A stretch of DNA of 64,000 nucleotides from the NCBI GenBank assembly GCA_038222225.1, contig JBBRHV010000001.1, positions 13,864-77,863 on the forward strand. Direction: 5' to 3'. The notes beneath the pieces were generated by a model. That model did not search any database, was not told the origin of the DNA, and saw only the letters and a list, made by a program, of their open reading frames with translations. The position numbers and the translations under genes were made by a program. Below are positions 3,671 through 64,000 of this stretch, piece after piece (positions within the stretch are counted from its first letter, which is position 1; every line of letters begins with the position of its first letter). This DNA is from Candidatus Omnitrophota bacterium. GTDB lineage: Bacteria; Omnitrophota; Gorgyraeia; Zapsychrales; JANLHA01.

Positions 3671-3700
3671 GATAAGGCTTATGGGGGGAGAAACCGATAG

Positions 3701-4558: not shown

Positions 4559-4576
4559 TTTTATAAGAGGGGAACT

Positions 4577-5458: not shown

Positions 5459-5586
5459 TCATCAAAAGGAGGGGCTTCTCCGGTCTGGTGCAGTCGATGT
5501 GGCAGTATTTGGTCTGATGAGTTCTTTGTTTTACCTCCAAAAAGAAAAAAGGGCCTGGCGGATTAGCGCACTTTTGTTTTGCGCGG

Positions 5587-5619
5587 AAGGATTCTTTTGT
5601 TTCAAAAGGAATCCTTTCG
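5587..5619 (+). terminator. Candidate hairpin downstream of tadC. The stem GGATTCTTTTG pairs with CAAAAGGAATCC with a one-base bulge and a TTT loop. It is followed only by TTTC.
   Basis: Near-perfect inverted repeat read directly. The weak U-tract lowers confidence that it is an intrinsic terminator. Confidence 0.35.
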
Positions 5620-5718
5620 GCAGAAGGCGCAATTTAAAGGTTTGCTGTTTGAGTAAAAAGGGGACCCTGTAATTAGAGAAGAGGGCTTGAGAAAAAACTG
5701 AAGTTTAAGCAAGATAAT

Positions 5719-5780
5719 TAATGTCCAAAAAATGAAAAATGTCCAATCAGAGAGATAAAAAAAGTTTTTAATGTCCAAAG
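5719..5780 (+). repeat. Three direct copies of (T)AATGTCCAA at 5719-5729, 5738-5747 and 5769-5780 in the leader of the giant gene. The reverse-complement TGGACA half-site recurs at 6011-6020, 6101-6107 and 6140-6146.
   Basis: Direct reading of the intergenic region. This is a candidate operator or iteron-like set of sites. Confidence 0.4.
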
Positions 5781-5920
5781 AATGTGTTAAATTCATGTGT
5801 TCCAGGGGGTTTTATTATATATAAGAAAACATTTATTTGTCCTCGAGAAAATAGTTTTCAAAAAGAACGCAACTCGCTAAAAACAAACAACTTGTTTCCA
5901 AAAAAAATCTTTGAAAAAAT

Positions 5921-5949
5921 TTGTTGCATATATTGACAGGTGGTATACT
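5921..5949 (+). promoter_or_regulatory. Sigma70-like promoter. The -35 is TTGTTG (5921-5926). A 17-bp spacer follows. The extended -10 is TGgTATACT (5941-5949).
   Basis: Sequence match to the TTGACA-17-TGnTATAAT consensus. It sits in an AT-rich intergenic region, 177 nt upstream of the giant-gene ATG. Confidence 0.45.
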
Positions 5950-6036
5950 TTAAACACCTAGCCCGGAGGAAAGTGAGTTAAATTTAAGAAACCGCTTTAC
6001 TTAAGTATTTTGGACAATTCAAAAAAATCTTCATAG

Positions 6037-6064
6037 ACCGCCTTTCCGGCGGTTTTCTTGTTTG
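6037..6064 (+). terminator. Intrinsic-terminator-like hairpin inside the 5' leader. Stem ACCGCC / GGCGGT, loop TTTCC, followed by TTTCTTGTTTG. It is a possible attenuator or the end of a roughly 100-nt leader or sRNA transcript.
   Basis: A GC-rich 6-bp stem plus a U-rich tract lie about 90 nt downstream of the predicted -10 and about 60 nt upstream of the ATG. Confidence 0.4.
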
Positions 6065-6125
6065 TAGAAATCCTTCCGGCTAAAAAACTAACGTACAATC
6101 TGGACATAAAAAAGTACCCACTTTT

Positions 6126-9100
6126 ATGAATGACAGAATGGACATAACTCCACAGGCCCTTCGTGCGGCTGCTTCTGAAGGTTCAGAGCAGGCGGAGATG
6201 CCTATGTCTGATAATGTCCAGAGTGATATATATATATCTAATCCTCAGCGGCCATTTAAAAGCCGTTTTAAGGGTTGGCTTCGTTTAGTTGCTGCTGTTG
6301 TGGTTTTTGTGTTCCTTCCTGAGCAAATCAGCTGGGCCATGAGTTACAATCCGGCGGTTTTATGGAGTGCGCAGCCGATTTCGCTGAGCGGGATGCCAAT
6401 TTCCGCACCAACCGGTCCGGCGTTAGAGCTTCAGCTTCCGCAGCAAGAAGCCTCCGAGATGCTGGCGACCAATATTCAGAGCCTTTTGAGCCGCGCGGCT
6501 CAGGAAGGTAATCGCAATTTGGAGATCCAAATTGCATCTCCCGACGAAAAAGAGTTCCGCAATATTGACGGGCTTCGTGTTTCAGCCAAAACGTCTTTAA
6601 GCCAGGAAAAGATTCAAGAGGCGGTCCGCTGGCTTCGTCAGCCGGAAATTCACCCGCTAAACTGCGGTGTTTTTGCCCTGTATGAATTCTTAAAATTAAA
6701 CAACACTCCGATCTCTCTGGAACAGGCCTCTTTATCGACGCTGTCCATTGACTTGCTTTCTGACATTGTCAAGCCGGGAGATGCGACGCTCAAGACGTCT
6801 TTGTACGCCATCGATAAAGTGGTTTCGCTTTATCAGCTGGAGTATGCGGTCATTAAGCTGGACCCCAAAGAGATCTTGAAACTGAACGCTCCTTTTATTG
6901 CGAATTTCGGAAAAGAACATTTTGTGACCGTCACGGCGCTTGATGAACAGGGCGTTCACATGCAGGACACGGGCGTCGCGCGAACGCTCTCTCAGCCGGA
7001 ATTTTTGGAAAATTTAAGCGGGTATGTTCTGATTTTAACAAAGAATATCCCGATTTCTGTTTCTTACCAAGATGTCAGTGACGTTGAAAAAGCCTTTGTT
7101 TGGGGCGACCGCTGGGTAGACCAATCCGACGAGTTGCCTGGATTATTAGGAGATGTCGGCGCAGCGTGGGCCCGCGCCGGTATGCAGGTTGCCATTTCGG
7201 TCGCTATTACGGTTGTGACCTTTGGTCTGGGATGCGCCATGGCCGTAGCGAGAGACGGCGTTCTCCTGGCCACCGAGCTTGCCAAACTCTTAATGCAGGT
7301 CATTGTTTCTGTGGCCCTGATCGGTATTTCGGAGCTGGTCAACACCATCAATCAGATTGCTGTTTTGAACGGCTGGTGGGATGAAGATGTCGGCTTCGTC
7401 ATAGGAATCGTTATCTCCACGGCCTTGTCGGTGGGGGCGGGCATGTTTGCCGGCGGCGCGGCGGGTTCCCTTGGGGCATCCGGCGCTACAGGAGCGGCGT
7501 CACAGACAGGGTCAGCCATCGGCGGCGCGGCGTTTGCCGGATTAGGCACGGGTATCTCAAATGTCCCTTTGACTTTTGCCAGAAGCTTTGCCCAAGCGCT
7601 CGTCGTTGCGATTCCCAAGGCATATCTTGCCAGGGAGCTGTATGAAATCATTGATATTGACGATCCTATTTTAAAATCAGCCGTGGTGGGGGTCTTGTCA
7701 TCCGTCGGAACCACCATTGGGTTGGTGGGGCTGAGTTTTGGCCTTGACCAAATTGGTTTAAATTCTGTTAATGGGTTTATGGGCATAAATGTCGCCGATT
7801 CTTTTACAGAATTTCTGAAAGATCTCGGTAAAAACGTGGGGCGCACCGTTGCGGCTAATGCGCTGGCGGTCGGGTTAAGATATCTCGCTTTGGAGATTGA
7901 TGATGAAACGTTTGCCGCCGACACCTTGGCGTCGCAGGCCATCGGACAAGTGGGGCAGGCCTTCGGCGGATGGATTTTTGATATGGCGGTGAGCGGATCA
8001 TTGCCGCAGCTTTTTGCCGGGGAGGTCCAGAAGGGGCAGATGTTTCAAGACCCTGGCTCTGAAAAGATGGAGGTGCAGGCGCAGGAGCTTTTTGTGACCA
8101 GGTCAGACGGAACGCCTGCTCGTCTTACCATGGAAGATCCGGGTCGATATACCTATACAGATACTGCAGGGGAGACGGTTTTTCTTAAGCCGGGGGAGGT
8201 GGTCGAGACAGTGCCATTGGAAAGAAACGACGCCGGTCAGTGGGTCCCGCAAGGGACTGCGGATAATAAGAAGGACGACAGCTCCTCTTCAAGCATGAGA
8301 ACTCCCACACAGTTTATGAATGTAAGGACCCATCAGCCGGTCCAAATCGCCGATTTCACAAAAGTTACGACACAGTATTATATAGCCGATAAAAAGGGGA
8401 TGCCGGCCTTTGTCGAGTATGATAAGGCAAGCGGGAAAATTACCATTCCCCAGAAAAGCGTTGACCAGTTGAAAGCCGATAATTTCCTGAATTTAGATGC
8501 TAACACCAAGTATTCTTTGCTCGAAGGAAAAGACAAGAATGGGAACCTGCAGCTGGGTTTAGGAAAAAGCTGGTTTTGGGGGACGCTGACGACAAAAACT
8601 TTGACGTCATTGGTGGGGGTTGCGTTGGCGTTCGGCATGGATCGTCTGGAAGATAAATTTATTGGTAAAGATGATCAGGGGCAGAAAGACAAGTTCCAAA
8701 CGCTCGGGTTTCGGCTGATGGCTTTTCTTGGAACGGCCTTATCAGCGGAAGCCACTGGAGCGCTTTCGCGTTCCATGTTTTCTGCTCCGAGTGGGACAGG
8801 TCTTAAGCCGGGTACGGATACGATCAGTCCATTTGGCGGTATTTTCATGAGGAGCGTAGAGAAGCTTGCATTAGGGATCAACGACAGCATGTTCAGAGCT
8901 AACGGCGCGATGCCGAAAGATTGGGATTGGAGTAATGGTGAAACGTTTAAGTTTGGGGGCGACGGAGTATCACGATATCGATATCAAGCAATAGATCAAA
9001 TGGTGCGTTTTTACGAAGGGGCCGGGGAAAGCGCCGGTTGGGGCTTGGATTCCTATTTTAAGATCAAAGACCTTCGTAAGCAGCTGGAAGGGGAGCAAGA

Positions 9101-12100
9101 GAAAGTAGACGGAAAGAAAAAAACCACGCAAAAATCCGGCGGGTTGTTGAACAGTATCAAAGGTCAGAACCTGTTCGGCGAAGGCGTGTGGAACGGCGGG
9201 AAGGTCGTTAAGGAAGAGAGCACAAAACTCACGGACGCACAATTCCGTTATTTTTTTGTTATGGGTGTGATTAACATTACAACGCAAGCTAAAAATGATT
9301 GGGCCATTGATCAGGTGAACACCAATCTGGCCGGAGGATTTGTCAACAGCGCGAGCGATCTTTATGTGGACGGAGGCATTGCCAAAAACATCAGATTATC
9401 GCTGGGATTTTTATTATCTGGTTTTAATAAACCGGAGATCACGCGGGATATTCTGGGGTTTGCTTATTGTGACTGGAAGGCCGTGCAGACCGGGCAGGTC
9501 GCGGTCAGTAAAGAGGTCTCCAAAAAATTAGTAGATCTGGGAGCAGACAAAGAGAACGCCAAAACAGCCCAAAAGGAAGCGCAGATAGTGGATCGGGCGG
9601 TTTGGGTTCTGTCGATTTCTGAGATGGTAGATTTGGGGAATAATCAGTACTCAGCTATGACCGGCTATAGCATGGTCGGCGTTGGGTGGACGGGATGGGA
9701 CATAGGAGAGAAGGATTTCGGGCGAGGGTTCAGTCATTTAAATTTAAAGATCAACCCTAAAATGGCAGAAAAATTAGGAATTTCAGAAAAGGATATTGAA
9801 AACGGCTTAAAACCAATTAAGGACGGAGAGCTTGCCGGGGAATTTGATAATGCTGCCTCAATCGAAGGGCTTGGGCCGAAGACGGTTTTAGGTATAAAAA
9901 ATGGATTAACAGCGCTGTTTGTTGAGCCGGGGTTAGATACGAACATTAATACATCTATTCGGTTGGCCGGATGGGATCAAGCCGAAGAGATTAATTTTTC
10001 GCGTGGTGCAGGCAGTGAAAGTTGGATGGGAGATGTTAAAAATCCGCATAATATTTCTCTTAAGGAAATGGGTGATCCCGCCAACCGCTTTGTGACCGAC
10101 AGAAAATATACGATAAGCTATCAAAAGGACTATCTTTTCCCGACGGTAAAGAACGCGACATGGTTGATCGGGCGGGTGAGTATAGGCCGGGAGACCTGGG
10201 GATATGAGCTCGACGCAGCAGACAAAACAAAACATCATCTGATGGAGCTGAAGAGCTTCTCAGGGATTAAACGAGCTTACGCAGGGGAAGGCGATCAAAA
10301 GATCTGGAAGCTGGAACAGCTGGATAAACCAAGGCTGAGTGTTTTCGGAATTAAGGGAAAAGTTTTTGGGGAAAAGTTGGCAGAAGCGTTCGCAAGTATG
10401 GGCATTTTTGATGCCGACAGCATTAATAAAGTTTTAAACGGCATCAATCCAGAAGATCTGAAAAGTCTGTACGACGCCGCCAGTGGCAAACTCAGCCCGC
10501 AGCAGAAAAAAGCTGGTTTGACGGCGCTCATTCAGAAGGCCATGGTGGATATTTTGGCTAAGGAAAGTTTTGAGTATAAGTCTCTGAAGGGAGCCATGGC
10601 AGAAGAGGGCGTTAGGATTGCCTTATTTGAAAAGTGGGGAGAAGACAAAAAGGTTGCGGAAAGCGGCCTGGCGCTTTTGGATTTGGGAGATAAACGCGAG
10701 GCTAAGAAAGGCGTGGACCGCTTTGTGTTCAGCCTTAATGCAGACAACCGGCTTTTGATGAATCCGCAGACATTGGATCTTCAAAAAAAGGAAGGCAAGA
10801 ATTCGGCGATAGACGGACTGGGAGTTTTTGAGATTGAAACTTTGGGGATTTCCAACGAAGATATTTTGCAGGGCCGGATAGCGATCGCTAAGGAAGGCGT
10901 CGGGGAAGCACAAATACAGGCCTATCAAGTGGCATTTCAGGCTTTGGATAAATCCGCCCGTCAGATCGCCGGGGTTCAGAATGCCCTGGAGACCATGAGC
11001 GCGCAAGAAGAGAGGGTCGCCAGCTTAACACAGCAGTTGCAGAATCCGGATCTTGACGCTGCGAAGAAAGAGGAACTGAAAAAAGAGATCGCGATCTTAG
11101 ATAGGGAAATAGGTTTGATGAAGGGCAATCTTCTGGTGGGGCATCAGGATATCGTGCAGAAGATTCGCAGCAAAGAAAAGGAAGTCGCTGATCTCATGCA
11201 GCAATGGAACAGTTCGGAATTCGGTTCCAAAAAGAAAGTGGCGCTGGAAGAAAAGATGGCTGCTCTGAATGTGGACATCGTTTCAATGAAAAAGAGCCTT
11301 CCGGAATATGTGCAGATTCTTGCGTCCAAAGACGGGGGTACGAAGGCAGCGTTAGGTAAAATAAAAGAAGAAGGCGCTAAGCTGGCTGCAAATTTGGCAG
11401 AGGTACAGAAGCTCAATCCGCTTACCGCCGGCGAAAAACGATTTGCCCTTGCCAGAATGTTCTTACCGACAAAAGAAGGAACGCATGCCACCTCTTGGGC
11501 AACCTCGTTTTTCCAGGAACGCCCGATCGCGAATTTAAGCTGGGAGTCTTTAAAGAAATATTATACCTATGAGAAAAAGGATGGGGTAACGCCTACTCCC
11601 GAAAAGGTCGCCTTAGGACTGGCGACTGTGGCAAGGGGTGAAAGCGCCAGTTCTCCTTGGGGAAACCTTGGCCAGACAGAAAGCCTTTCGGAATATGTTA
11701 TTAAAGGGAAGTGGACCAATATAAGAGAAACCGGCCTGGTTCATGTTCTGGACTATGAGCTTGGGGATATTCAAATGGGAGCCAATGGAGCCTTGGTGTA
11801 TGAAACCATCGGCACCGACGGAGCTATTTTAAATTTTGACCCGGCCACCGGGCGCGTGATGAAGTACGCTGCTGCTCAGGACGAAACGATTGAAGTTCCA
11901 ACAACGCTGAATAGTGATTTTAAGGAGAATTATGCGGGGACGTATCAAACGCATATTGTTTCGAATCAGAACGGCGTGCAGGTTGGAGGCGGCTCGATCA
12001 TCAGCCACGGGGACAAGTTCGGATGGTCTATCGGCCGCTTAGCGGATGTAGAAATTAAAAATAAGATCGCTGTTTATGATGGCATTAATTCTTATTATTT

Positions 12101-15100
12101 TGACCAGGAGGGCGGCAAGCCGGGGCAGTTCCGTGTCGCTAAAGAATATGAGCTGAAATACGACATGCTGAAATCCGGCTATACCAAAGAAGGCGTTAAG
12201 GACGGCGAAATCGCCCATCGGATGACCGCGGATGTTTTTGAAATGGCTTCGTTTGAAGTCGGCGGAGAAATCGGATATTCTTCGAGCGGAAAAATCTTCG
12301 GTTTCGACGATGCGTCGATCCAGCCGCTGTACCGTTTTGCTGAGGGAAAAAACGCCAAGCTGTTTGCCAAAGTCAAGAACGATCCGGCTGAGCGAGAATA
12401 CAAAGCTGAAAAGATCAATTTTAGTTTTTCAAACGATGGCGACGGGACGTTTGTATCTTTATCCAACTTTACGCTTGTCAAAGGTCAGCAAGACGCCAAA
12501 GCGGAAGGATCCGGCACGAGCGATATGAGTGTTGTGATGAAGGAAATTTTAGTCCCGATTCCGACCTTGTTTAACCGAAACACCGTGACTGCCCGTAAAA
12601 TGAGCAATGAAAATGAAGCGGCCGTTAAGCTCGCGGCCAAAAAACAATTTTCAAATATGAACGAGAAGATCGAGGCCATTGACGGAAACAATATTTTTGT
12701 TGTAACGGCGGCAGAAATGAAAGGCAGCGGAGCTTCTGAAACCGACACGGTTGTGCTGGTGACCGTTCCTGCTCATTCTGAGACGGACAAGCATGGGAAG
12801 ATCATAGAATATCCGGAAGCCTTGCGCCTTTATGTGCGCGAAGAGATTGCCAAAGATGTTTCTAAACTTTCCGATATCAAGATGATGACACACGAGGCAT
12901 TTTTGCAACAGAAGCAAATTGAGGTTGCGGCGGCGGACAATAAAACGAGAAAGGTTGCTTATTCAACAGCGGTTCGGCTGGACAACGAAGGGAACCCTCT
13001 TAAGGGATTGGATGACAGCGGCGCAGTAACGATGTTAGGAGATCTTTCACGTGAGGATTCCCCTTGGGGAAAAGAGATTGCAGCGCAGGCATCTCTGGTG
13101 ACCCGCATCATGGTGGTTGATCCAGCGGATATGCCGACCGGAGAAGGGATGGAGGGGGTCAACGCGGTTTTAAAAGGCAACATTTTGATTGTCACGCAAG
13201 CCGTGATCGACGATCCAAAAGAAATCAATGTGACCGCATTGTCGCATTTCGCTAAAGGAGAAATTATAACGGTGGTTAAAGCCGACGGCACCACCCGTAA
13301 AGTTCTTTTGAGCACGGAACTTTCTTCTGATGAGGGCAAGAAAGTTATCGAACTGGCCCAGCCGGCTTTAGATGCGCGAGCAGAGGCGCGGTTTGCTAAA
13401 ACTCATAAAAAAGGCGATGACCTGTTTGGGCGTAGTGTTTCTGAAGTCCGGGTGGTCGATGACGCGCTGATCGCCAACGGCCAGATGGCGCTGTCTTTTG
13501 AAGGAGATGTTTTGTATGTGGCAGAAGGGGCGCTGGCAAAAATGCAAGAAGCTCTACTGGGCACGCAGGAAACCGGAGAATTTTCGATGGGAGGACCGTT
13601 AGCGCTGGGAAACATCCGTGCTTCTCAAGCTGATCCTAACGGGGTTTATGCCAGCATTGCTTCAGGGCCTTTAGGCCGGATGATCTTAAATGAAAATAAA
13701 TTCACTCTTTATGAGGCTAATCTCAGCGAAGGGGATGTGCCGGGCGAGCTTAGAGCCAGGGACGCAAACGGAGTTCTGATGGGAGAGGCTTTGGTTGAAG
13801 ATGCCGGACCCAAGCGTTTGGCGTATATGTTTAGTCCGTTGCAGCAAGGATATCAGCCGGAGATCAGCGCAGATTTTAATATGAACGGGCGTCTTTTTGT
13901 TCCGGAGTCGAAGAAATTTTCAGTTAATATTTTTGAAGAAAAACAGGAATTAGCCAAGCCCCTGGGAGTTCCGGAAGGAATGCCGAATACGTTTTTGCCT
14001 CAGGCAAGCCGTTCCTTAACAAAATTTAGCGGGATTGCGGATTTTAAAGGCGGAGAGATCCAGATCCATGCCGGGTCAAGAGGCCAGAATGAAGCTTCGC
14101 AGACAATGGCCATAAAGGGAATCATTGACGGTAAAAATGAATGGGTTGCCACAACTCTCAAACAGACCAGTATGGATTTCTTTGATGACTTCGGTCGTAA
14201 ATCATTAAGCCAAGGCTTCTCGCAAGAATTAACGCGAGCCTTATCAAGTGAAAATTGGAAAGTAGCGGTCGATGAGGCGAAAGTGACGCCGGAGGCCGGT
14301 TTGCTGCGCTGGCATGGAGAGGATTTAAATCTGAACGGTTCTTCTGGTACGTTGTTCGCCAAGGTGACTTTGGCTGACGGAACAACGAAGGAATCAAAAG
14401 AGGTTCAGTACCGTCACACGTTTCTTGATCGGCGGTTGATGACCGATGCTGAATATGAAGTATATAAACAGGTTAATGCCGCTTCCCAGAATCAAGGGGG
14501 GGCGTTTGTCCCGCTGAGCGGCCGCGTTGCCGAAGCCTTTGTCAAATCGACGAAGGAAGGAGACCTTCCGATTGATCTGAAAGGTACTCAGATTTATAAG
14601 CGGCCCTTGAGTCAGGCCACGCGCGCGGCCTTGGCGATTTTGCGAAGCATTCTGCAGGATTACCAAGCCAATGGGACGGTTCACGCGAAGAAGGACATGT
14701 TCTTGCCAGGCATGGACAGCCTTGCTGCGGCTTTATCCGGCGCTTCTAAGGGAGAGCTGGACGCAATCATCAAAGAGGCGGAGCAGCTTTATGGGAGAGC
14801 GACACCGGATACGATTGTCAAGACCATGATTTATAAGAATTCTGACTTAGTAGCTATGATGTTGGATGTGGCTTTGGCTCAAGACGGCGCTGGGATGGCA
14901 TTTAAAAGCACTGCCGATGCCGACGGGCTTAAAAGCATGATTGAGACAGATGTTCATTTAGCAGTCTTAGGTAACGGCATGACCGGGATCAACGCTCTAA
15001 AGAATCTTGCTTTGAAGGCCGCGAACGGTGACATGGCAAAAGCCCAAGTAATGTTAAATGAGGTCTCGGCTGTTTTGAGCGGAACGTTCAGAGGGGCGGG

Positions 15101-18100
15101 AATGCTGAATGTTTTAAAACGCACGGAGTATAAGGATGCGGGCATATTAAATGAAATGATCCAGCTGGTTAAGCAAGGGAAAGATGGAAATAGCGGCTTT
15201 GGAGAGATGGAGGATTCCGCCAAATTAGCTGTGCTGGTTTTAGTTGCCGCGATGACTACGGGAAAGACAGACTTGATAAGCAATTTGGATAAGGATAATG
15301 CAGCTGTGAAGTTTTTAAAGCAGATGGGTTATCAACCCGGCATAGAGCTGACAAAAGTTGCCGAAGAATTTGCTAAGGCTTTTGATCTTTCAGATCCGGC
15401 GTTGACTGATAAGCAGAAAATGGAAAGGGCTTCGGGCCTTGCCCTTCTCACCAGTATCGGCAACACGATGAAAGGCGAAGATGATGCCGAGAATGCTTTT
15501 GAATTTATTATTCGAAATTCTGACGCGCTTAAAAACAGTAATTTGTTTTCTCCCAAGCAGGCAGTTTTGAATGAGTTATCTGAAAAAATAAATGTTCTTC
15601 AAAATTCAAGAACGAAAGACGCAAAAACAGGAGAGTTTAAACGTATAGGTTTGACTGTGTTTTCGGCAGATGCTTTGCAGGCTTTAGCGGATTTTGGCAG
15701 GGACCTTAGGGCATCAGTTGAATTGAACAACAAATTGACCGATGCCGGGATTTCTTTCGCGGATCGGGTTTCATTATTAGGAGAAGTCGACAAGCTGCAG
15801 ACGGAAAAAGGCGCAGATGGAAAAGCACTAAGCCCGATAGAGATCGTTGTGAGCTTGCTTGGCGGCGGGCAGAGGGCGCAAATTGCTAAAGTGTTCGGTA
15901 ATCAAGGACTGAATGAAACATTTTTGGATCAAGCGGTGCAGACCTATCAAACAACACAGCGCCAGGCGAAAGAAATAGAATTTATGAAGTTGGCGGGATT
16001 GATGATTTCAGAGGGACCGATCAATAAAGCAAATATTTCTGCGGATAAAGAAGGAGATCCTACTAAGGCGATCTTAAACGTTGACGCAACCAAAGGGCAG
16101 GGATTGTGGATCGCGTTTGGCGCTCCGCAGCAGAATCGTTTAGAAGCCTTTATGGCATCGCTTGCCGGCGGTAATGAATATGAGCTTTCAAAGGCTTTAG
16201 ATGCGAGCGGGATTTCAGTTAAGCAAAAGGAAGAGATTCAGCAGGCGGCTTCTGCGTTCAGTGAAGTGATGGCAGGAGCTGAATATACAGGTGTCAATCC
16301 GCAAGAGGCCTTTGCAAAACTTTTTGTCTCGAAACTTTCTGACGGTACCCTGCAGGCTTTGACCAGTGCAGGTGTGATTGATAAAATTGCACGGATTTCT
16401 AATCCAATCTATGACCAAAAGCAGCTGAATGTGAATTTCAATCCGCTCTTGGAAGGATCTGTGTTTACCAAAGGCGAGCCGGCAGGAACGCCTGGGATCA
16501 TGATTGCGCGCGATGATTTTTCGGGGATCAGTTCAGTTCTAAACAGCGGAGCAGTAACCATTAAGAACGGCATGTTCTTTATTCAAGAGGCAGGGCTTCG
16601 AACCACATCACCGATTTACGCGCCCGGCGTGATCGGACAGATGAAGAATGTGATCAATTATAAAGAAGGCGCGCCTGTCAGCGCTTCTTCGGTCGGCGTT
16701 CAGTATTCAGACATGATGACATCACAGGGCACAGAATGGAATGTTAATTACGGGCTGATCGCCATGCTTAAAGACGGTACTGCTTTCGGTACGTTTGATT
16801 TAGTAGGCGCAGATAAATATCAGCAGGATTATCTTTTTGTTCCGCAGGATTTTAAAGTGTCAGAAGGCTCGATGGCGTCTTTGGCGCAGGGTGAGAACGG
16901 TTGGACTCAGACCCGTTTTGCTGACGGCGCAACACTGAAAGGGGAATTTTTCGGCGGATATATGTCAAAGGATGGGCTTTTAAGCAGCGCAGTTTTGTAT
17001 GGAAAAGGCCCGTTCTGGGAACGGGTGAAAGAAACGCCGACTGGTTATACCCCACGCCAAACGAAAGATATGAATCTGGCAACTCTCGCCATGGTCGAAG
17101 GCGATAACATTATGGGCAATAGCAAGACTGATGTTAAAGAAGCGTATACCCGTTTTACGACGCCGGATAAAGACACGATAGTATCTGCCGTTCCGATGGA
17201 TATCGGACCGGATGGAAATAAAGCATATACGGCCATGGCTGAAAACGGCACGCGTTTGGTGTTTGCTCTTGGCTCCAAGGGCCCTGACGGTGAAGGCTAT
17301 TTTACCGGCATGCTTCGCCCGGATTTCAGACGGCCGGGAAGCTTGCATTTGTTTTCTAAGGATACAGTTCTTTACGATAAAAAAGGCAAGCTTGACCTGT
17401 CCAAGGCGATTATTCAATTTGTTAAAGGCCGCGGAAAATATCAAACCGATATTGGTAATTTCTTAAACGCAGCAGTGGATGAAATATTTTTATCAACAGG
17501 AGTTAAGCCGGGCGTGTCTGTTCGTGAGGGCATGTATGCTTACGGGCGGCTGCCTAGTTCAGAAGCAGTTATACCTAAAGGAAGAGAGGCGCCGGAACAT
17601 TTCGATACAACCGGTACACCTGCCGATGTGCTGGTTGGTCAAGTCTTTACGGAAGACGGCGGAAAATATTTCGGAAAAGGCTTTTTAGGGCGGTTTACGG
17701 ATAATGCGTTTGTTGGTCTTGCGAAGCAGCGGTCATTTCATGGCGATCTGGCGCAGAACGATATTCCTAATTGGCTTGGTTTTGAAGAAAAAGGGCTACA
17801 GGTTTTGGGTGAAGGAGGACAATGGCTTGGCGTAAGCAAGGATACATATAAGGCAAGAGTCTATCAGATATCGCTTGCCAAAAAAGAAGGCAAAGAAGAT
17901 GTCTATGTTCCTATTCTTATGAAGGCAATGACGTTTGCAAATGGCTCAGTAAGGCGGGAATTTAGACTGCAGGGCAAGGAGAAAAAAACAGATGCAGAGT
18001 ATGGGAGTCTTGTATTCAAGAAATTTGAATTGAATTCTCTTGTCGCAAAACTTGAGGCGATAATGCCTAAAGAGAATGTGGAGAAAAAAGACAACAGCAT

Positions 18101-51100: not shown

Positions 51101-54100
51101 AGAAGATTATCCGAAAGGAACCAATGGACGCAACTGGCGGGCAAGGATGATTTTTGCCATTATTATAGGTATGAAGCTCATTGCGGGTCTTTATATGTTC
51201 AAGTGGTTATCTGTACCAGTTGGCATTGCCTGGAAAGGCACTGTGCTCTTGCCGGCAGTTCTGGGCGGAGGCACGTTGATCGGCGGAAACTTATTGATTG
51301 TGGGTCTGTTTGGAGTCGTTTTTGCTGGGATATTCCTGCTGGATATTTTTGCCTATTTCTATCTGGTCGAGACGGTGCTTGGGACTTGGATCGCCCGTTA
51401 TCAAGGGATCAATCGCGTGCATAGCTGGAGACGCAACTCGCTGAGCGAAGGCGCTTGGATGCTCTCTCTGTTTGGATTGCTCAAATGGGTCTTGCCGGTC
51501 AACGCCGCTCTTATTCAGCAGTATCTTTTGCTTGGTATTGGATATGTTGTTAAGAGCAGCACTGTCATTGCCTTCTTCAGTACACCGGTAGGCGGGGTCG
51601 TTATGGTTGTTGGTGTGGTCATCTTGCTATTGGCTTTAAGGGCTATTGTAAACGCAATTTTAAGTTCAATGGGATTTGAACGCATTGGGGGCGATACGTT
51701 TGTAGAAATGTTTGGTAAAGCGCAGAAACAATTTGCTAATAAAATTCTTCCGTCTTCGGTGGTCCGGCCGGATGGCACCAGGGCGGCATTGACAGCGCGT
51801 GAAAAGTTTGTGGCCTGGGTCAAGGCGTGGAACATGATCGTTCATCAGATGAGAGAAGATGATATTATCGGCGATGAAGAGGAGAAGAGATTAAGCTATA
51901 AGTTCACAGGAGAGTCTGAAGAGGATTTCTTGGAGATCACAGGTAAGATCACAGGGCCGGATCTGACGGTTACACCTAAAGACGGACGCGCACGCAAGCG
52001 CCTGCAGCATTTCATCTCTACCTTATTTATGGATATGGAGCAGACCCCGATTTGGGAGAGAATGTATTTGTTCTCTGCTGTGTGTCCAATCTTTGAAGAG
52101 CCGAATATGTATCCGTTTAAAGATAAGTCGGTTGGGGTTTACGATGCTATTAATGAAGTATACAAGACAGGAAAGACGTTCTTGACGCATATTATTTCAA
52201 AGGTTCCGCATCAGTGGCAGTATTTTATTCAGCGCATGGAAGACAAATTGCAGATTTTTACAGAAGAAATGACTGAAAAAGCAAAGACGAATCCGAAGAT
52301 CACTCAAGACATGATCGATGAGGCTGTCAGTCGTAAGCGGGATGATATTGCGGCCATGAAGGCGCTTGGTATGGGTCAGAGGCTGGTGCTTAAGGATACC
52401 GAGATGATCAATGAGGTCCGGGCCTGGGTCAGCTACCGCTTCCAGCCGTTCTCCCGTACAGCGCGCGGGATCATGACGTATCATCAAATGTATGAGTTCC
52501 AGGCTAAGGTCAATTATCCGACCGCAGAAGCTCTGAATGCCACACAGAAGATCCGGGGTGAGAAGCCGGAAGAAAAGAAGAAGAGTTACGTGCAGCGCAT
52601 TATAGACATTGTTAATGAGAAATTTGAATTTGTGGTTGGGGATTTTGTTTACGGGGGTCATCGGAATGGTACAGACGGATCTCCTGAAGCCATGCTCAGA
52701 GATGATATGCATGCGCTTATGGCCAAGTTCCCGGGAGGCATTAAGCTTGTGTATTGTGCAGCTCCAGATAAAAAGAACCCTAATTATGCACCAGTAAAAG
52801 TTGAGTATTTTGCAGGTGTTCCGACACAGGAAGATCGGGATGCCGGTGTGATTATGCATGAGTATGAGGATGAATATACTCATCAAATCACCGGATACTT
52901 GAAACAGGTCCGCGCCTTTAATATTCATAGTTATTTCTTTGCCGGCCAAGGAAAACCGGTCAACCAGAATAACATGTTCCGTTTCACCAAAGGTGAGATC
53001 ACGCAGATGATGGATATGAACCAGGATATGTATCTGGAGGAGACGTTTAAGGCGCCAAGCATGATGGAAGAGTTCCGTAAAGATCCTAAGATCGCGATCA
53101 TAGGGTTCCCTGAAGATATCTTTACAGATTACTTCAGCCCTGCCGGTGCTGTCCACGCCTTCGGAGATCGGACATTTGTCACCATGGTTCAGAGGGTCTT
53201 AGAGTTTATGGGGATCCGCTTCCATTACGGGCATCCGGACTTTGTCCGTACCAATGCCTTTAGACAGCTGGGCTTATTGAGCGCGCCGTGGGTGAACGAA
53301 GACATTTTTGGCGCGTATAAAGCCATGCTTTATGGGCAGAAAGTGATCAATCGCGAAACCATGCAGGCGGGTAAAGCGCGGGAAGCTATGTATATTGCTT
53401 TGATCGGTATTTCAGAAAAATTCGGCGCCGGCGGATCTGAACAGCCGTTGACATATATTGTTCAGCTCCTTAACCGTTCAGGCATTTTCGGATTTGCGCA
53501 AGGATTTATGCATGTGGTCGCGTCCATGGGTTATTTCTTGCGCAAGGAAGTCATCGTTCTGACAAATAACAACTATATTTTGATCCTCCTGTTCTTAGGG
53601 GTGAGCGCGTTTGCGGCCTTCCCGAACGAGTTGACATGGGGTCTGATTGGTTTATTGATGTCACAGGCCATTACCTCTACCGGATGGGCTCAGGTCTGTA
53701 TCGAAGATGGGTTGATTTTAGGAACTATTCGATTTATAAAATTGTTCCCGTCTTTGGCCATGACATACATGTCTTTGATTTATAACGCTTTTGCTCCGGG
53801 AAGCAGAAAAGCGTATGTGAATCAAGCCGGCTATGTGGCAACAGGTCGGCCTCCGGGGCTTCAGCACATGTATCCGTTCAGGCCGACGAACCATATTCTT
53901 GTTAAGTTAAGGGTCATTGCCGGCGATCTTTATGGACATGTAAACTTGAGCGGATATGCCTGGGTGGTTCCGATGGTCGCGATCTTAGTGAGCGGCCTTA
54001 TCTTGTGGCTGAATCCTGGTCAGGTGTATTCATTATTCTTTATTATGTTAATCCTGTCCAGTATGTTTGCTCCGTTTATCCTGAGCCCTGGTTCTACACC

Positions 54101-57100
54101 GATCACCATGGGTATCCGCCGTTGGTATAAACAGCATTTCACGGATGATGTTCCGAGATTCTTTGAGAAGATCGATAGTTTTGGGAAGGAGGACACCATT
54201 AAAGATGTCCTATTTTCTGGGAAAACCAAACCTGAGCCAGCTGGTTTTGAAATGAACAAAGAGTTCAAGAAAAACGGAGTACAGCATGTAACAATTAATG
54301 GCCAGGATCTTACAGTCGGAAAAGAGGTTTTAACGGTAATGGATGTAAACGGAGTTTCTGAACCGACCGGCTATAAGGTTAAGGAAATATTCAAGAATAA
54401 GGTGGTTCTCGAAAAAGGAAAAGAAGATTTTATTGTACACAGAATGAATGCTTATTATGGAGCCGCCAGAATAGTAATAGTGGCAGTTGTAATAGGAGCG
54501 GTGTGGCTTATTCCGGGCAATTACCTTTATATAGGAATTATTCTCTTCAGCATTTTCTACCTGGGGTTAGGCTTTGTTTCAGATGCCAAGAATCTTTGGG
54601 CTAAGATCTTAAAACTCAAAAATATTCAGAAGATTCTGAACCATCCAAAAGTTAAAAAGATCCGGGATGATCAAGCAAAGAAAGCCAAAGAGCGTAAGGA
54701 TGAGCTAGCAAACGGCAAAGAGCGCTCAACAGCTGAAAAGGTTCGGGATTTTCTGACATTACCGAAAGGTAAAACTTTACGGGATATTATTAATCTTTAT
54801 ATGACAGGCATCATTGTCATGTTGATGTTGACCGCGTTGGGGGTTGTTACATCGGTTATTGTTGCCGCTCCATATACGGCCGGGTTGTTTATTCGTGCTC
54901 AGATCAAGTTCTTACGTCTGCCGTCTTTGGCGAAGTTTGTCGGCTGGTCTTCTCTTGTTATTTGGCTAAGTAAGCTGGCTGTTCCGGCAATCTTATTATA
55001 CACAGGCGGGTTTGCGGCATTTTTGGCCGTGGTTGGGTTTGAGGTTATCATCGGATCCTTCGCATCAGGGCTGTTCACCGGAGAGGCCGAGGATGCACAA
55101 TTGGCCTTAGATATTCGTTCGCTCCATGAGGAAAAATCTCAGAGTGTAAAGGGTACAAACAGCGCGGTCTTGGCTAATCAGAAGAATGACGGCAAGAAAG
55201 ACCTCGCCCGCACTGAAGACGGCGAGGCATTGAATGACGGACAAGAAGCTTTCTTAAGAACATTGATCGATCAATATCAGGATCAGATCGCCGCGGGTGA
55301 GCCGGTCGATGCTGCGGTCATTGAGAAAATTGCCGCTCTCCTCAGAGAGCAAGGGTATGTTCATGTTGCCAATGCTCTTCTGAGTAAAACCGTTGTCCGC
55401 GGGCCTCCGTCATTGTTTACTGATTTTGAAGAAAGCATCCATAGAGTCCTTCTGGGTACTATCACAGGGACTCACATCATCATCAATCCGATGATCCTTT
55501 CTCATCCGGTGGAATTAGCCCGCACGATCATTCATGAAGCGGGTGCTTCTGCCGGGTTGTCCCATAACGAAAATAAAGAACTCGAAAAATTAGCGCATCC
55601 GCTTTTGGTGGCGATCGACGGCCTCTCAGCAACAGGGAAGTCCGCCGTTAGCGGTTATTTAAGCAAAGACCTCAAATTTGTCAATATCTCCATCGGGTTG
55701 ATCTACCGTTTCTTCGCCGCATTTATCAAACAATCCAATTTTGCGGTGCTCAGCGATCTCGAATTTGAGCAGCTCCGCGAGATGGCTGAAAAGATCAGCT
55801 ATGTGAAGAATGAAAACGGCGAGTGGAATTTTGTGGTTAACGGTCAGGTGATCAACAGCAATGATCCGGCGTACTTTAATCCGGAAATTGAGAAAGCACT
55901 CAGCGAGCATCTCTCCAAAAAACTCCATCCGTTAGTCCTTCCGGTGGCCAGAAGAGTTATCCGTCAGGTTTTGGCCAGCGGTGAGAACGTTGTTGTTGAG
56001 GGTAGGATTGCCTGTGATTATATCGCTCCATTTGCTGATGTGAAATTGAATATTGTTGCAGAATATTCTGTACGCGCGCAGAGACGGATGGAGCAGCGCA
56101 TCGCGCAGCATGGCATAGAGAAAGCCTATATGGATGCCATAGGCACCAAGAACGCGGCAGAATACCAGCAACGGGTGAGAATGGTCGCCCATGAAATTTA
56201 TGAAAAAAGTGGGCATAAGCCCGGGAATGACCTGGCCAATTGGGCGGAGGCGGAAAAGAGGGTCAGAGCTGAAATGGCTTCTAAGATCGAAGAGGGAGCA
56301 AGGACAGTGGAGGCGGAAAAGAGGGTCAAAGCTGAATTGGCTGCCAAGATTGAAGAAGGATTGCGGAGACGCGATAGAAAAGATCAGGAACATTTACCGA
56401 AAGCGCCAGTTCAGCCCGGTAATGTTGTTGAGATCGACACAACGCATGCCCATGGTTTGGATGAGACCATTAGCAAGGTTCAGAAAGTTATTTCTCAGGC
56501 CTATCTCAGCGGACGAACAGGCCTCAGCCCGCAAGTCGCAGAGGTGACGCAGCAATTAGCATCTTTGAAGGCAGGCGAAGCTATTCCAGAAAGCTTGAAA
56601 CAGGCCATTTTGAAGGTCTTGCCGGTGATCGGTGAATTGAGCGAAGCCAAGATCGTTCACACGTTCCGCAATCTTGAATATCTGCACAGATTAGCAGCGC
56701 AGGATTTTGATTATTTCTACGATCACTTAAGCGAGCAAGAACGCGCCACGGTTGAACGGGCAGAATATGTGGCAGCGTTACAGAGCATCTATAAAGCGTA
56801 TGCAGCGTTAAGCGCACAGGAAAAAGAAGCGTTATGGCTGACTGTCGCGCTTCATGACATCGGATATATCCGTGTTAAGGACCATACCCACATGAGAGTC
56901 GGGGCTGAGATGGCTCGCCCGATTTTGGAAAACATCGGATTGAACCATGAGCTGATCGACCTTGTGGTCTTTACAATCAGCCAGCATGGTTCTATCGGAA
57001 ATTTGGCCCTGGGTGAAACAACTCCGAAGACAATGTTAAAGGCTTTAAGCGCCGTCAGCCCGGCTCTTCGGGCTGGACGTGCCCGGTTTGTCCGCCTCAT

Positions 57101-60100: not shown

Positions 60101-63100
60101 TCGTAAAGGTTCAGTGGTTCATACATCAAGCTCTGATGTGCAGAACCCGAACCTGCCGGTTTGGAGAGGTTATTTCGAAGGCAAACTCTCCGCAAGCACT
60201 AACGCCGCCGTTCTTTCATCTGACCGCATGGGCAAAACCTCCGTTGATTATGAAGCTGAATTTGTTGCACGGTTCAATGATACAACCAACGCTGCATGGC
60301 AGGAATTCCGCGCCGCGGTTGAAGCTCATCCGGCAGAATATTCTTCTGTCTGGACAAAGATCGCAGAAAAAGCAAAAGCAGCCAAGGCGCAGGCAGAAAA
60401 GCCGGTTGAGTCGAAAGGAACAGTTCAAACGGTTGAGTTGGGAACGGCAAAAACTCTAAACGCTGCGGTATTATCCCGCCGTAATTTCATTCAGAGCATC
60501 GCGGTTGCAGGTGCTGCGATTTTAGCCGGCGGATGCGCTTCGCCTACGGAAAAAATGCTTCGCGGATGGTCCAATCTTTCCATTGAAGAGCAGCGCAAAC
60601 AGATCGAGGGTATGAAGGCGATCGCCAGTGAATTTAAGGCCAAGGATACCCGTGAATTTCTAACAGAACCAGCTTTGAGGTTCCTGGAGACTCAAGCCAA
60701 GATTTCACGTAAAGACGCACTGTCTATTCGCATTCTATTCACGTCTGATGAGATGTCATCGGTAATCGGGGTGTCGACTGACGCAGGAACGATGACGCGC
60801 GCGAAATTGGGAGAATTAAGGAATCGTTTCTTAAGACATGTTCCGTCAATGAGGGCTGAGTGGCAGGAAGCCTTTGATCTGATGGAACAAAATATTTTTG
60901 ACGGTCGGGATGTGGTGGTTGTTCTCAGGGAAAGTTTATTTGATACAGAGGCCTTGGATGACTTTAGAATTGCTCAGGTTGTTCACGAAGCTGTGCATTG
61001 GGCGCAATTCACGTTCCGCAGTAAAAAGATGGGCCTGTCCTTCGGGAGGGGTGCTGAAGAATATCTCGAGCTTGAAATTGAGAAGGAAGCCTACGCGCTG
61101 CAGATGCTGTATTTGGCAGGGCGCGGAAAAACCTGGGCAACAATAGCCGTATTTTTCGCCGGAGATGCTCCGAGCGGAAAGGCGGAGGTTGACGGGCCTT
61201 TGGCCGCGGAATTTGAACAGACCCGGTTTGGGCACGGATTGAAACAAATTTGGGATACGCGCGTTGCGCCGAAACTTTCGTCGGGTAAAGCGGTTGAGTC
61301 GGAACCGACCAATTCCGCGGTAAGCACATTTGTAGTACAAACCAAAAGTCCGGTGCTAGGTACACAGGGACGAAACCAAACCGTCAAAGACGGTCAGTTG
61401 TTCAATGTCACGCAGCGTTGGCTAGAGCCGCTTGTTGATGAAGGGGCGACAACAGGCGATTCGCTTGAAGCCAACGCTGCGGTGACGAACTATTTTGAGC
61501 GTTCTTCTGACAGCATGACCTTCTCAGGAAAAGGGCGAGTTGTTCCGGCAAGAACGCGACAGCTTCCGCAGACAATTGAAGAAGATATGCTGCCGGCCTT
61601 GCCGGCCTCAAGTTTACCGGAAAATACGCCGGTGCGCGAGCTTCCGGCAATCCCGAGCTTACCAATAAACATTCAGTTGATCGTGCCGGTGTTTGGCGGC
61701 GCTAACGGAAATGGAAATGGAAAAAGAAGAGGTGGTCCGTATTCGATGATCGCCTTTGCCAGGACATTGGGCGGTTCACGCGCGAATTTAAGAGCTCCGC
61801 GCAGCTTGAATGCTGATAATTTTGGAAAACGACATTTGGTCAATTCGGCTCTAAGAGCCTCAGGCCGTAATTTTGCTTCAACAGGTTTGAGTGACGTGGC
61901 GCATGGCTCAAATGGCGACGATGCTAATAGCGCTGTTACAAATAGCGACGAAGATTCGGATGCAGACGCTGCCACGGGTGCGTCCAACGTCGAAGGTGTG
62001 CGCGCGGTAAGAGAGCGGCGGTTCAATGTGGCTTGGTTGAGTTCACGTTCATTTGTCGCTGAACATAAGGATGGAACATGGGCTATTGTTTTTGAGGACG
62101 ATCTATTTTATGGCGTGGTCGGCAACACGATGCTCGACACTGTTAAATTCCTCCAGAGTGCCGGATTCAAGAACGCGATGGTGGTGGATGCGGGCAGCCG
62201 CGGAGCGTTTACCGCCAAAGGAAAAGAAGGGGCTCTCTTTAGTGAATCGCGCGTTCCGGGCAAGGGGCCGTACACATATTTGAATGTCCTGTCGAACCAT
62301 GATTTCCCGAAGACTCCCGCACCGTCACAGAAACCGGTCGGGAAAAATCATGCCGTACTCCATGGCGGTCAAAACGAGAAGCGAAAATCAGCTGCTGCAT
62401 TCAGCAAGGGCGCAGCAGTCATATCCGGGACCAACGCTGCTTCACACAATCATCACCGGAATAAAGGGTCAAAGGATAAAAAGGGGATTCAGGCTAGGGC
62501 AGTTTCAGATAAGAGATCATCAGCGAATAATCCTCGAAACATGGGTCGCCGCAACTTTATCCGAAATGCACTGTTGGCGGGCGGGGCCGCGGGACTTGGG
62601 TTTGGCGCCTGGTTCTCCTTGCGAGGACGCGCGTTTGATCCTCTGTTCTGGAAGGCCTTTGGTTTGAAGAAGGATCTCGCGCTGTTAATAAAGTATTTGG
62701 AACAGGTCGGCGAATGGTTGCGTTATAACGGTTATGCGCACATGGATGTTGTTGAAGCGTATCTTCAGGCCGTCCGTGAAAAAGCCGAAGTCATTGATCT
62801 CAATATCGGAAGTCAGGTTTTTGGAAAGGCCGAGGATCCTGTTAGCGGAGACATTCATATTGAATTGAATATCGGGTCATTGTTCCGTATGGCCGAAGCG
62901 GTTCAGACCATTTCTAAAATCGCCCAGCGTGAGCAGGGGGCTGGCGCCGCAAACGATACGACCATGTTTGTGCAGGTGATTGTTGAATCGTTGGTCCGTG
63001 AAGCCTGGGGTTATGACCTGATGGTGCGCAACCGTCCCGGACGCAAGCAGTTCGTGAACGTCTTTAATGATCTCCGGCTAAAGATTCAGGAAGCGGACCG

Positions 63101-63998: not shown

Positions 63999-64000
63999 GG

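Follow-up and report, generated by a model that had tools for sequence, protein, structure and literature searches.

An open reading frame of at least 58 kb beside a Tad-like pilus locus in an Omnitrophota bacterium: a C39-headed giant carrying an FKS-type GT48 block

At the left of a 64,000-nucleotide stretch of DNA from a Candidatus Omnitrophota bacterium (contig JBBRHV010000001.1 of assembly GCA_038222225.1; hereafter 'the window', numbered from its first letter) lie genes of a Tad-like pilus locus and an AT-rich leader, and from an ATG at 6126 as far as the window edge there follows a single open reading frame (ORF). That frame is a real, single protein-coding gene from this phylum, and its opening 58 kb or more lie in the window. 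Its product very probably belongs with the C39-headed, multi-pass, multi-enzyme giants that Omnitrophota encode beside Tad/type-IV-like pilus loci, and deep within it lies a block assigned to glycosyltransferase family 48 (GT48), the family of the FKS-type glucan synthases.

A scan for stop codons in the plus-strand frame of ATG 6126 found no TAA, TAG or TGA from position 6084 to the window edge at 64000, leaving 19,291 sense codons and a visible product of 2.107 MDa; an earlier note on this DNA, made from the sequence alone, had described the frame as unbroken and its product as exceeding 2 MDa even when truncated, and both statements hold. Because the ORF is cut by the window edge, 19,291 amino acids (aa) is only a minimum. 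Over the same 57.9 kb stops number 1002 and 1326 in the remaining two plus frames and 605-979 in the three minus frames, no other frame is open for more than 3.3 kb, and an estimate from base composition puts the chance of a stop-free frame of this length at ~10^-474. All 19 of the 3-kb blocks into which the ORF was divided carry a coding signature (GC content higher at first than at second codon positions; codon usage correlating with that of the whole ORF at r = 0.71-0.91), in agreement with the coherent protein sequence that the note had reported wherever it translated the frame, and neither GC content nor GC skew shifts along the window. An alternative genetic code was considered as the cause of so long a frame and rejected: it is unneeded because all three standard stops are absent from the frame, and the neighbouring genes end in standard stops. 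A repeat-scaffold architecture was likewise rejected, since the protein has only three small internal similarities in 19,291 aa and is essentially non-repetitive; the DNA of the window has only a handful of short repeats, and no long ones to seed a mis-join. Rfam (gathering threshold, whole window) and tRNA scans gave no matches.

The beginning of the gene and its surroundings recur in other genomes. The N-terminal 1,200 aa match only Omnitrophota proteins annotated as 'C39 domain-containing', the best of which (P0003, 59% identity) is encoded on an 8.5-kb contig (L001) of metagenome-assembled genome (MAG) GCA_035453615.1, where the gene order is that of the window: first ORFs of ~1,061 and 125 aa, then the pair of T2SSF genes, and last a C39-led gene that the end of the contig truncates. 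L016, from a 64-kb contig of an independent assembly of the same lineage as L001, shares the full gene order and is collinear in the same frame over giant aa 1-3378, its own giant ORF being still open where the retrieved DNA ends; the start codon is conserved, residue 1 pairing with residue 1 of the orthologue in L001 and L016. A TadC query retrieved 80 related metagenomic loci, and among the 27 with at least 3 kb of downstream DNA a C39-headed ORF follows TadC in 21, the other six having genes of ordinary size; 29 of 30 C39-headed ORFs after TadC run off the available DNA, the longest reaching at least 3,183 aa. The parallel with Omnitrophota giant-gene loci that had been drawn from the sequence alone is thus sound, for the close homologues are all Omnitrophota and synteny is conserved.

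Domains were called with Pfam and NCBIfam profile scans and with phmmer against PDB sequences in four 5,000-aa chunks, and motifs were read directly. The giant ORF and its recognisable parts are as follows.

6126-64000, + strand: giant ORF, at least 19,291 codons (stop scan, codon usage)
6126-7775, + strand: conserved head, with signal anchor (aa ~45-72), C39 peptidase (aa ~172-307) and a bundle of at least four transmembrane (TM) helices (aa 356-538) (Pfam, motif, homology)
29352-29729, + strand: GNAT acetyltransferase module, aa 7743-7868 (Pfam Acetyltransf_1, 8.5e-12 to 1.3e-12; RxxGxA acetyl-CoA motif)
33480-34064, + strand: probable alpha/beta-hydrolase module (weak), aa 9119-9313 (Abhydrolase_6, E 0.0026, below cutoff; HGG, THSFG and GH motifs)
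36723-38384, + strand: second TM cluster, about nine hydrophobic segments (hydropathy scan)
39021-39359, + strand: very weak, unconfirmed similarity to SLT (lytic transglycosylase), aa 10966-11078 (Pfam SLT, E 0.014, below cutoff)
39933-40178, + strand: degenerate LytM/M23 domain, aa 11270-11351 (Pfam M23, 1e-8 to 1.4e-9; best NCBIfam match SpoIIQ)
48603-55121, + strand: FKS-type block, with soluble part (aa 14160-14600), about eight TM segments (aa 14608-15175), GT48 catalytic domain (aa 15284-15826) and about seven TM segments (aa 15818-16303) (Pfam, phmmer, AlphaFold/Foldseek, relatives)
55608-56120, + strand: cytidine monophosphate (CMP)-kinase-like P-loop module, aa 16495-16665 (Pfam Cytidylate_kin, 6e-20; Walker A GLSATGKS)
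56166-56267, + strand: DUF2934, aa 16681-16714 (Pfam, 2.7e-7)
56814-56987, + strand: HD phosphohydrolase-like module (marginal), aa 16897-16954 (Pfam HD, 22.4-23.7 bits against a cutoff of 22; LHDIG motif)
60471-60536, + strand: internal signal-like segment of twin-arginine (Tat) lipoprotein type, aa 18116-18137, SRRNFIQSIAVAGAAILAGG/C (NCBIfam TAT_signal_seq, 18.3 bits against a cutoff of 16.7; Pfam TAT_signal, E 0.006)
63813-63869, + strand: last hydrophobic segment before the window edge (hydropathy scan)

The Pfam Peptidase_C39 match of the head spans aa 224-307 (1.5e-8), and the triad Cys180/His265/Asp281 is complete and in canonical order and spacing, the Cys lying in NCGVFAL and the His in EHFVTV; 85 residues lead from Cys to His and 16 from His to Asp, the corresponding figures in ComA being 79 and 16. 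Because it follows a signal anchor, the C39 domain may face outward. Homology with other C39-headed proteins (P0003-P0006, and the ORF after TadC in 30 loci) stops at aa ~500-550, and outside the two conserved modules, the head and the GT48 block, no relatives were detected by searches that were exhaustive for aa 15200-16350 alone; ~90% of the protein, ordinary globular in composition, matches no Pfam, NCBIfam or PDB sequence. Against the PDB the four chunks matched only FKS1 and cytidylate kinases, and NCBIfam added nothing to Pfam. The six domains named in the earlier note (C39, GT48, CMP-kinase-like, HD, GNAT and LytM) were all recovered by Pfam, the HD match (E 6e-5 to 1.6e-4) lying just above its cutoff. 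The CMP-kinase-like module matches cytidylate kinases in the PDB at best at 6e-9 and falls below the cutoff of the NCBIfam cmk profile. The LytM domain had been called degenerate, and rightly so: the His of HxxxD has become Gly and the first His of HxH has become Glu, and because two metal/catalytic His residues are thus replaced, the domain is not counted as a peptidase and is, to judge by its motifs, a degenerate LytM rather than an active M23 enzyme. A single-sequence AlphaFold model of aa 10,900-11,400, which takes in the SLT-like and LytM stretches, had a predicted local distance difference test score (pLDDT) of 35.6; it was discarded and is the basis of no fold claim. A NAGPA-like stretch at aa 18591-18697 is below cutoff. 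The Tat-like segment (SRRNFIQS...ILAGG/C) ends in a lipobox and is one of three internal signal-peptide-like segments, at aa ~10193, 18116 and 19222; it may be the relic of a fused, once independent exported lipoprotein gene, or it may work after proteolytic release. A hydropathy scan, used here in place of DeepTMHMM, counts 36-43 TM-like hydrophobic 19-mers, gathered in four clusters (aa 356-538, 10200-10753, 14608-15175 and 15818-16303) with isolated segments at aa 18121 and 19230.

GT48 counts as an essentially eukaryotic family, otherwise known from fungi, plants and algae; the curdlan synthase of bacteria is a GT2 enzyme. The window's ORF matches the Pfam Glucan_synthase profile (PF02364) over aa 15284-15826 with 172.5 bits against a cutoff of 37.2 (1.8e-50), and phmmer aligns aa 15605-15782 with residues 1077-1278 of Saccharomyces cerevisiae Fks1 (5.8e-24). 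In Fks1 the donor-binding, acceptor-binding and catalytic residues have been assigned from structure (PMC10499315), and among them E851, K1082, D1102, N1104, H1195, N1220, E1221, D1222, K1246 and R1248 are conserved in the giant protein, while E1173 is replaced by Asp. An AlphaFold (AF2) model built on a 36-sequence alignment gives the soluble glycosyltransferase domain a pLDDT of 80-96, and a Foldseek search of the PDB returned Fks1/Fks2 structures as its top 13 matches (E 1e-23 to 8e-16, ~750-780 aligned columns), followed by BcsA and by hyaluronan (HAS), chitin (Chs) and cellulose (CesA) synthases. On profile, active-site residues and predicted fold alike the block is assigned to GT48.

An exhaustive HMMER protein search, run once with aa 15200-16350 as query, found 790 relatives, the best of them 41-54% identical, in proteins whose length runs from 700 to 7,886 aa; almost every named one comes from Omnitrophota, with Elusimicrobiota/Endomicrobiia in addition, and plant callose synthases appear from ~E 1e-37. 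By local alignment, what is shared with these relatives is one block only, giant aa ~14,160-16,330, in which the soluble part comes first and the GT48 domain has a TM cluster on either side; Omnitrophota and Endomicrobiia ORFs of 2,000 to >7,800 aa carry this block too. GT48 modules also lie deep in very large proteins of Endomicrobiia (P0021/P0212, 5,737 aa, on a 212-kb contig) and Elusimicrobiota (P0019, 6,260 aa), and because they do, the bacterial spread of this 'eukaryotic' family is wider than Omnitrophota. Nine GTDB loci (L007-L015) carry the block at 50-58% identity and are collinear with the window in the same frame over giant aa ~12,450-16,330; in seven of the nine the frame is open across the entire 13-21 kb, and one of these open-frame loci lies on a complete 3.36-Mb Omnitrophota chromosome. 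Two of the GTDB loci, L009 and L010 (CAZBHY01 and CAZQQI01), are labelled 'uncultured Planctomycetales' and hold the block at 54% identity in ORFs open across the locus (at least 7,094 aa in L010); either they are mis-binned Omnitrophota or the block reaches other lineages of the Planctomycetota-Verrucomicrobiota-Chlamydiota group. A word-indexed protein search behaved quite differently: the 461-aa GT48 core brought only matches of ~800 aa or less and a 2,000-aa query only two remote GT48 proteins, many long Omnitrophota relatives being missed, and its negatives for giant proteins are not to be taken as absence.

Units joined in the window are found apart elsewhere. The head stands alone in L003-L005 as an 896-aa protein with its own stop, the next long gene beginning 35 nt later, and in L002 as a 1,198-aa protein beside T2SSF and Flp-like genes. 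The GT48-bearing protein of L014 (L014 11-12607) ends ~178 aa past the block, at a point equivalent to giant aa ~16,500, and in the window the CMP-kinase module starts at aa 16,495. Ca. Zapsychrus exili (L015) has, in place of giant aa ~12,450-16,020, two overlapping ORFs in different frames (184-7920 and 7895-16180) that are collinear with that region and whose junction maps to giant aa ~14,850-14,875; either the modules have come apart or been joined naturally, or the L015 MAG contains a frameshift error. Because of the stand-alone heads, the gene boundaries of L014 and L015 and the internal signal-peptide-like segments, an in-frame fusion origin is proposed: these sequence comparisons indicate that the giant ORF is a concatenation, in frame, of units that are separate genes elsewhere.

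Two further properties run through the protein as a whole. It contains 16 Cys in 19,291 aa (0.08%), 11 of the 16 lying in the GT48/CMP-kinase/HD region and none between aa 4016 and 14609; the adjoining pilus-locus ORFs have ~3.3%. The depletion is common to related giant ORFs (0-0.44%; L007-L013, L016 and L023-L082), amounting to 0.15% over 32,314 aa of C39-headed ORFs, and the L010 ORF has no Cys in 7,094 aa. We infer that Cys avoidance may mark extracytoplasmic exposure, or else the avoidance of mis-crosslinking in a huge chain. The second property is pace of change. Between the window and L016 synonymous sites are saturated (dS, substitutions per synonymous site, at least 1.7), and the replacement rate dN rises from 0.045-0.058 in TadB/TadC to 0.19 in the head, 0.42 over giant aa 1-1614 and 0.55 over aa 1698-3378, so that the giant body gains replacements ~10x faster than the adjacent TadB/C. 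In every segment tested dN is far below saturated dS, and the frame is open in both lineages: judged by these rates, the giant is under weak purifying selection on its sequence and strong selection on its continuity.

Upstream of the giant gene lie the pilus-locus genes.

2-3265, + strand: pilus-locus protein rich in Cys (3.4%), truncated by the left window edge (50-56% identity to the L001/L016 homologue)
3308-3670, + strand: small Flp/TadE-like (pseudo)pilin candidate, 120 aa, 9 Cys (N-terminus ...SRG/VTTVEY; conserved in L001/L016)
3701-4558, + strand: TadB-like platform protein with a single T2SSF domain, 285 aa (Pfam T2SSF, 7.9e-18; 91% identical to L001/L016)
4577-5458, + strand: TadC-like platform protein with a single T2SSF domain, 293 aa (Pfam T2SSF, 6e-12; 92% identical to L001/L016)

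Paired single-domain T2SSF proteins are the TadB/TadC pattern of the Tad (Flp) pilus system, and the earlier description of the neighbours as tad/flp genes stands for these two; for the flp-like ORF 3308-3670 it stands less firmly, the N-terminus fitting the G/xxxxEY motif but the Pfam Flp_Fap match being weak and below cutoff (E 0.062). Further small pilin-like genes lie upstream in L016. The first ORF has no Pfam match; it may encode a TadG-like pilus-associated adhesin. Its L016 homologue (L016 4248-8672), of ~1,474 aa and likewise without a Pfam match, has N-terminal TM segments and a CxxC-rich stretch, and divergence is fast: identity between the homologues is 50-56%, whereas TadB/C keep 91-92%. 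At 2869-2952, inside the window's first ORF, 42 nt (GCCGGGGATCTGCGAACAGTATGTCGATCCGCTTATTATACA) stand twice in perfect tandem, so that 14 aa (PGICEQYVDPLIIQ) are repeated; the second copy arose by a recent duplication that kept the frame, or else the assembly stuttered here.

Between TadC and the giant gene, the stretch 5459-6125 has 35.8% GC against 48.4% for the whole window, as AT-rich as the earlier note had it, and holds two candidate control elements.

5720-5777, + strand: three AATGTCCA copies in 58 nt, a candidate operator array conserved in L001
5812-6125, + strand: conserved AT-rich promoter/5' leader; at 6035-6055 a terminator-like hairpin, then a T-run (identity to L001/L016/L017)

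Three of the five exact copies of AATGTCCA in the 64-kb window fall within 5720-5777, and on this clustering the array is a candidate set of transcription-factor operators ahead of the giant gene; inverted TGGACA copies occur in the leader at ~6010 and ~6098. The leader is 84% identical to its counterparts in L001, L016 and L017 over 312 nt and near-identical over its last ~200 nt, adjacent coding DNA being 72% identical; the counterparts lie at L001 5754-6060 and L016 11153-11459. It contains a promoter-like TTGTTG-17-TATACT, and ~70 nt upstream of the start codon the hairpin AGACCGCC-TTTCC-GGCGGTTT with its T-run, whose 3' arm could pair alternatively with an upstream AAACCGC. A possible role of this hairpin, suggested by its sequence, is attenuator or antitermination control of the gene of at least 58 kb; the z-score of the leader fold is only -1.64, conservation extends to one other lineage only, and Rfam gave no match for the leader at E up to 1. 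The ribosome-binding sites had been described as weak: no Shine-Dalgarno-like motif stands ahead of ATG 6126, whereas tadB and tadC each have one.

With homologues in Omnitrophota, a C39 domain beside an N-terminal signal, many TM helices and a preceding pilus locus, the gene's identity and its class can be stated with high confidence. At 19,291 codons it exceeds the 10,000 aa from which Nielsen & Lui count giants, and the >30,000 aa used by West-Roberts lies beyond the visible part. How such a protein might work is a more tentative matter, and the picture we sketch is, taken alone, somewhat less probable than not. The chain would be inserted co-translationally into the cytoplasmic membrane, its TM clusters setting cytoplasmic enzyme segments apart from Cys-free, very long stretches outside the cytoplasm, and these, once exported, would form a coat or contact layer at the cell surface. 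On the cytoplasmic side would lie the GT48 catalytic domain, using uridine diphosphate (UDP)-sugar, together with the CMP-kinase and HD modules; the GT48 block would polymerise a beta-glucan-type chain and extrude it through its own TM channel. The degenerate LytM domain, and possibly the SLT-like region, would bind or regulate cell-wall material with no cleavage, and the adjacent Tad pilus would serve for attachment to a host or prey cell. Identity, class and mechanism together, as a compromise figure, we put at roughly 0.6.

The hypothesis published for the class, the 'Archaeovorin' reading (West-Roberts; Kizina), would instead make the giant a machine for degrading prey cell walls, its extracellular hydrolytic and adhesive modules digesting a host's or prey's cell envelope while the pilus keeps hold. 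The M23 domain speaks for it, as do the weak SLT, alpha/beta-hydrolase and NAGPA-like similarities, the long Cys-free segments, which fit surface exposure, and the Tad pilus neighbourhood; yet the M23 domain is without two essential His, the SLT and NAGPA similarities are below cutoffs (and the model of the SLT-like/LytM region reached only pLDDT 35.6), no glycoside hydrolase domain is significant anywhere in the 19,291 aa, and the enzyme that stands out by strength of match and by conservation belongs to the synthases rather than the hydrolases. In the known cases (EnvC, NlpD and SpoIIQ), LytM domains of this degenerate kind bind or regulate. We regard wall degradation as an unlikely account of this protein, and rate a little lower still the suggestion that the frame is a polyprotein or disguised operon, in which the chain is cut by its N-terminal C39, or its modules arise from internal starts, and the pieces are sent to different compartments, as a Tat/lipobox-led C-terminal segment might be. 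The complete C39 triad, the internal signal-peptide-like segments (aa ~10193, 18116 and 19222) and the coincidence of module boundaries with gene boundaries in relatives are what such a scheme would lead one to expect, and C39 cleavage was raised as a possibility by West-Roberts et al. Double-glycine leader-like motifs are nevertheless not enriched (one observed against 1.8 expected), and no in-frame start at a module boundary has a Shine-Dalgarno-like motif. Because every stop has been lost over 58 kb, and likewise in relatives, read-through of the whole frame appears to be under selection.

That several genes or genomes were mis-joined in frame during assembly is very improbable. In its favour, the source is evidently a metagenome, an exact 51-mer search of the GTDB representative genomes and the JGI metagenome contigs brought no match, and the middle ~9,000 aa and last ~3,000 aa, for which the case is less firmly closed, have no independent counterpart. 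But a chance stop-free join in frame is implausible over 58 kb, long repeats are absent, and GC, GC skew and codon usage are uniform; in the conserved regions, moreover, the ORF runs collinear with those of independent assemblies, which also stay open over entire loci of 13-21 kb.

To return to the membrane-threaded, polymer-making giant that we prefer, several observations weigh against it. About 60% of the ORF (aa ~3,400-12,450 and 16,330-19,291) has neither independent assembly support nor a detectable homologue. The TM list comes from a hydropathy scan, gives no reliable parity and does not set the topology; GNAT, which needs acetyl-CoA, sits in the Cys-free zone taken to be outside. In the GT48 active site, Fks1 D1080 is Gln and K1172 is Gly, and the TM channel part of the AF2 model is of low confidence. 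Four kinds of domain common in published 'Archaeovorins', namely SecA_DEAD, glycoside hydrolase, methyltransferase and NUDIX, were, finally, not found by Pfam in the visible 19,291 aa; for SecA_DEAD no chunk gave a match at E up to 0.5, and in published cases that domain is near the C-terminus, which here is outside the window.

Carried beyond this locus, the preferred reading would hold that Omnitrophota and Endomicrobiia giants with a catalytically competent FKS-type GT48 are partly surface-polymer factories, building a glucan coat or contact matrix of their own rather than being purely degraders of prey walls; that the bacterial blocks are the nearest prokaryotic relatives of eukaryotic callose/beta-glucan synthases; and that an entire gene cluster was fused in frame to give the giant ORF, with anti-Cys selection marking its exported segments. 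In this full form the proposal is speculative, and we would more readily expect some part of it to fail than the whole to stand. If true, the kinship of the bacterial GT48 blocks would bear on the origin of the eukaryotic callose/beta-glucan synthase family, and an FKS-like GT48 whose active site is intact tilts the view of function away from degradation and towards the making of polymer. Cys avoidance across related giants is a simple signature that could help to define exported segments, relatives with the same modules as separate genes offer a route to studying the pieces singly, and at the hairpin of the conserved leader the cell may control whether it goes on to transcribe a gene at least 58 kb long. 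The class is poorly understood, from the making and membrane insertion of a multi-MDa, multi-pass chain by a cell whose genome is small to the role of the finished protein, and the locus gives it a well-resolved 58-kb example. None of these additions overturns current views.

The C39 domain resembles the bacteriocin-processing domains of ABC transporters (ComA, HlyB-type C39-like) in being papain-like, with Cys, His and Asp in the canonical order and spacing, but it is not fused to an ABC transporter, follows a signal anchor and so may face outward, and belongs to a protein which shows no enrichment of the double-glycine leader motif. Tad (type IVc) pilus loci likewise have two T2SSF platform proteins (here of 285 and 293 aa), small proteins with a Flp-like G/xxxxEY N-terminus (here one candidate) and a large membrane-anchored accessory protein upstream; by contrast, no TadA/CpaF ATPase, RcpA secretin, TadV prepilin peptidase or TadZ is found in the window or in the 5.5 kb further upstream in L016. 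The GT48 block shares with fungal Fks1/Fks2 and plant callose synthases (PDB 7XE4, 8JZN and 9WZU) the Pfam match, catalytic and substrate-binding residues, predicted fold and TM clusters on either side of the glycosyltransferase domain, and differs from them in an identity of only ~20%, in a Pfam match confined to positions 3-510 of 819, in having no FKS1_dom1 N-terminal domain and no equivalent of Rho1, and in being embedded in a bacterial multi-MDa ORF.

The closest comparison is with the Omnitrophota giants themselves. ORFs of >20 kb occur in 77 of 116 Velamenicoccia species genomes, and giant ORFs and Tad complexes are common in Omnitrophota (Seymour 2023, PMC10066038); West-Roberts 2023 (bioRxiv 10.1101/2023.11.21.568195) describes giants with dispersed enzyme modules and numerous TM helices, with C39 close to the N-terminal signal and, upstream, small class-III-signal genes in a T2SS/T4P-like locus; and Nielsen & Lui 2026 (bioRxiv 10.64898/2026.06.07.730766) catalogue 916 proteins of at least 10 kAA, up to 147,155 aa, with a 'multi-enzyme' class and a 24-protein PF03412 (C39) architecture cluster; by their account, Omnitrophota proteins of this size run into the thousands. 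Against these figures the earlier claim that the protein would be among the largest of bacteria was overstated: the gene is not unusually large for Omnitrophota. Its arrangement is already published too, so that the remark that its architecture is not a described one fails for the general plan of C39, TM helices, multiple enzymes and pilus locus, and holds for two of its modules, cytidylate kinase being unmentioned in the texts of both preprints, and GT48 or glucan synthase in those and in that of Seymour 2023. Nor was any mention of Cys depletion found in the two preprints. The additions for which no counterpart was found in the published giant-gene papers are the GT48 block, the Cys depletion, the coincidence of module with gene boundaries, the ~10x rate contrast with TadB/C and the conserved leader hairpin.

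Like the C39-headed, 'Archaeovorin'-type giants, the window's ORF is of Omnitrophota origin, has its C39 next to an N-terminal signal and a T2SS/Tad-like pilus locus with small class-III-signal genes directly upstream, is threaded by dozens of TM helices (roughly one per 450-540 aa) and scatters glycosyltransferase, peptidase, GNAT and HD modules through mostly unannotatable, fast-evolving sequence. It differs in showing no SecA_DEAD, GT5/GT1, methyltransferase, NUDIX, GGDEF or glycoside-hydrolase domain in the visible 19,291 aa, where 'most' full-length published giants have a SecA DEAD-like/preprotein-binding domain; in carrying an FKS-type GT48 block and a CMP-kinase-like module; and in being almost repeat-free, whereas 65% of catalogued giants repeat at least one Pfam domain. 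Genes for PilZ proteins, solute-binding proteins and glycoside hydrolases come after the published giants, at a position that for this gene would fall beyond the window. In the account given in PMC10066038 of the giant of Velamenicoccus archaeovorus LiM (Kizina et al. 2022), that protein has 39,678 aa and 42 TM helices and, alone of its class, is credited with expression seen by proteomics. Likened to it by description, and at class level only, the gene in the window shares its phylum, its plan of a giant ORF threaded through the membrane and the company of a Tad complex in the genome.

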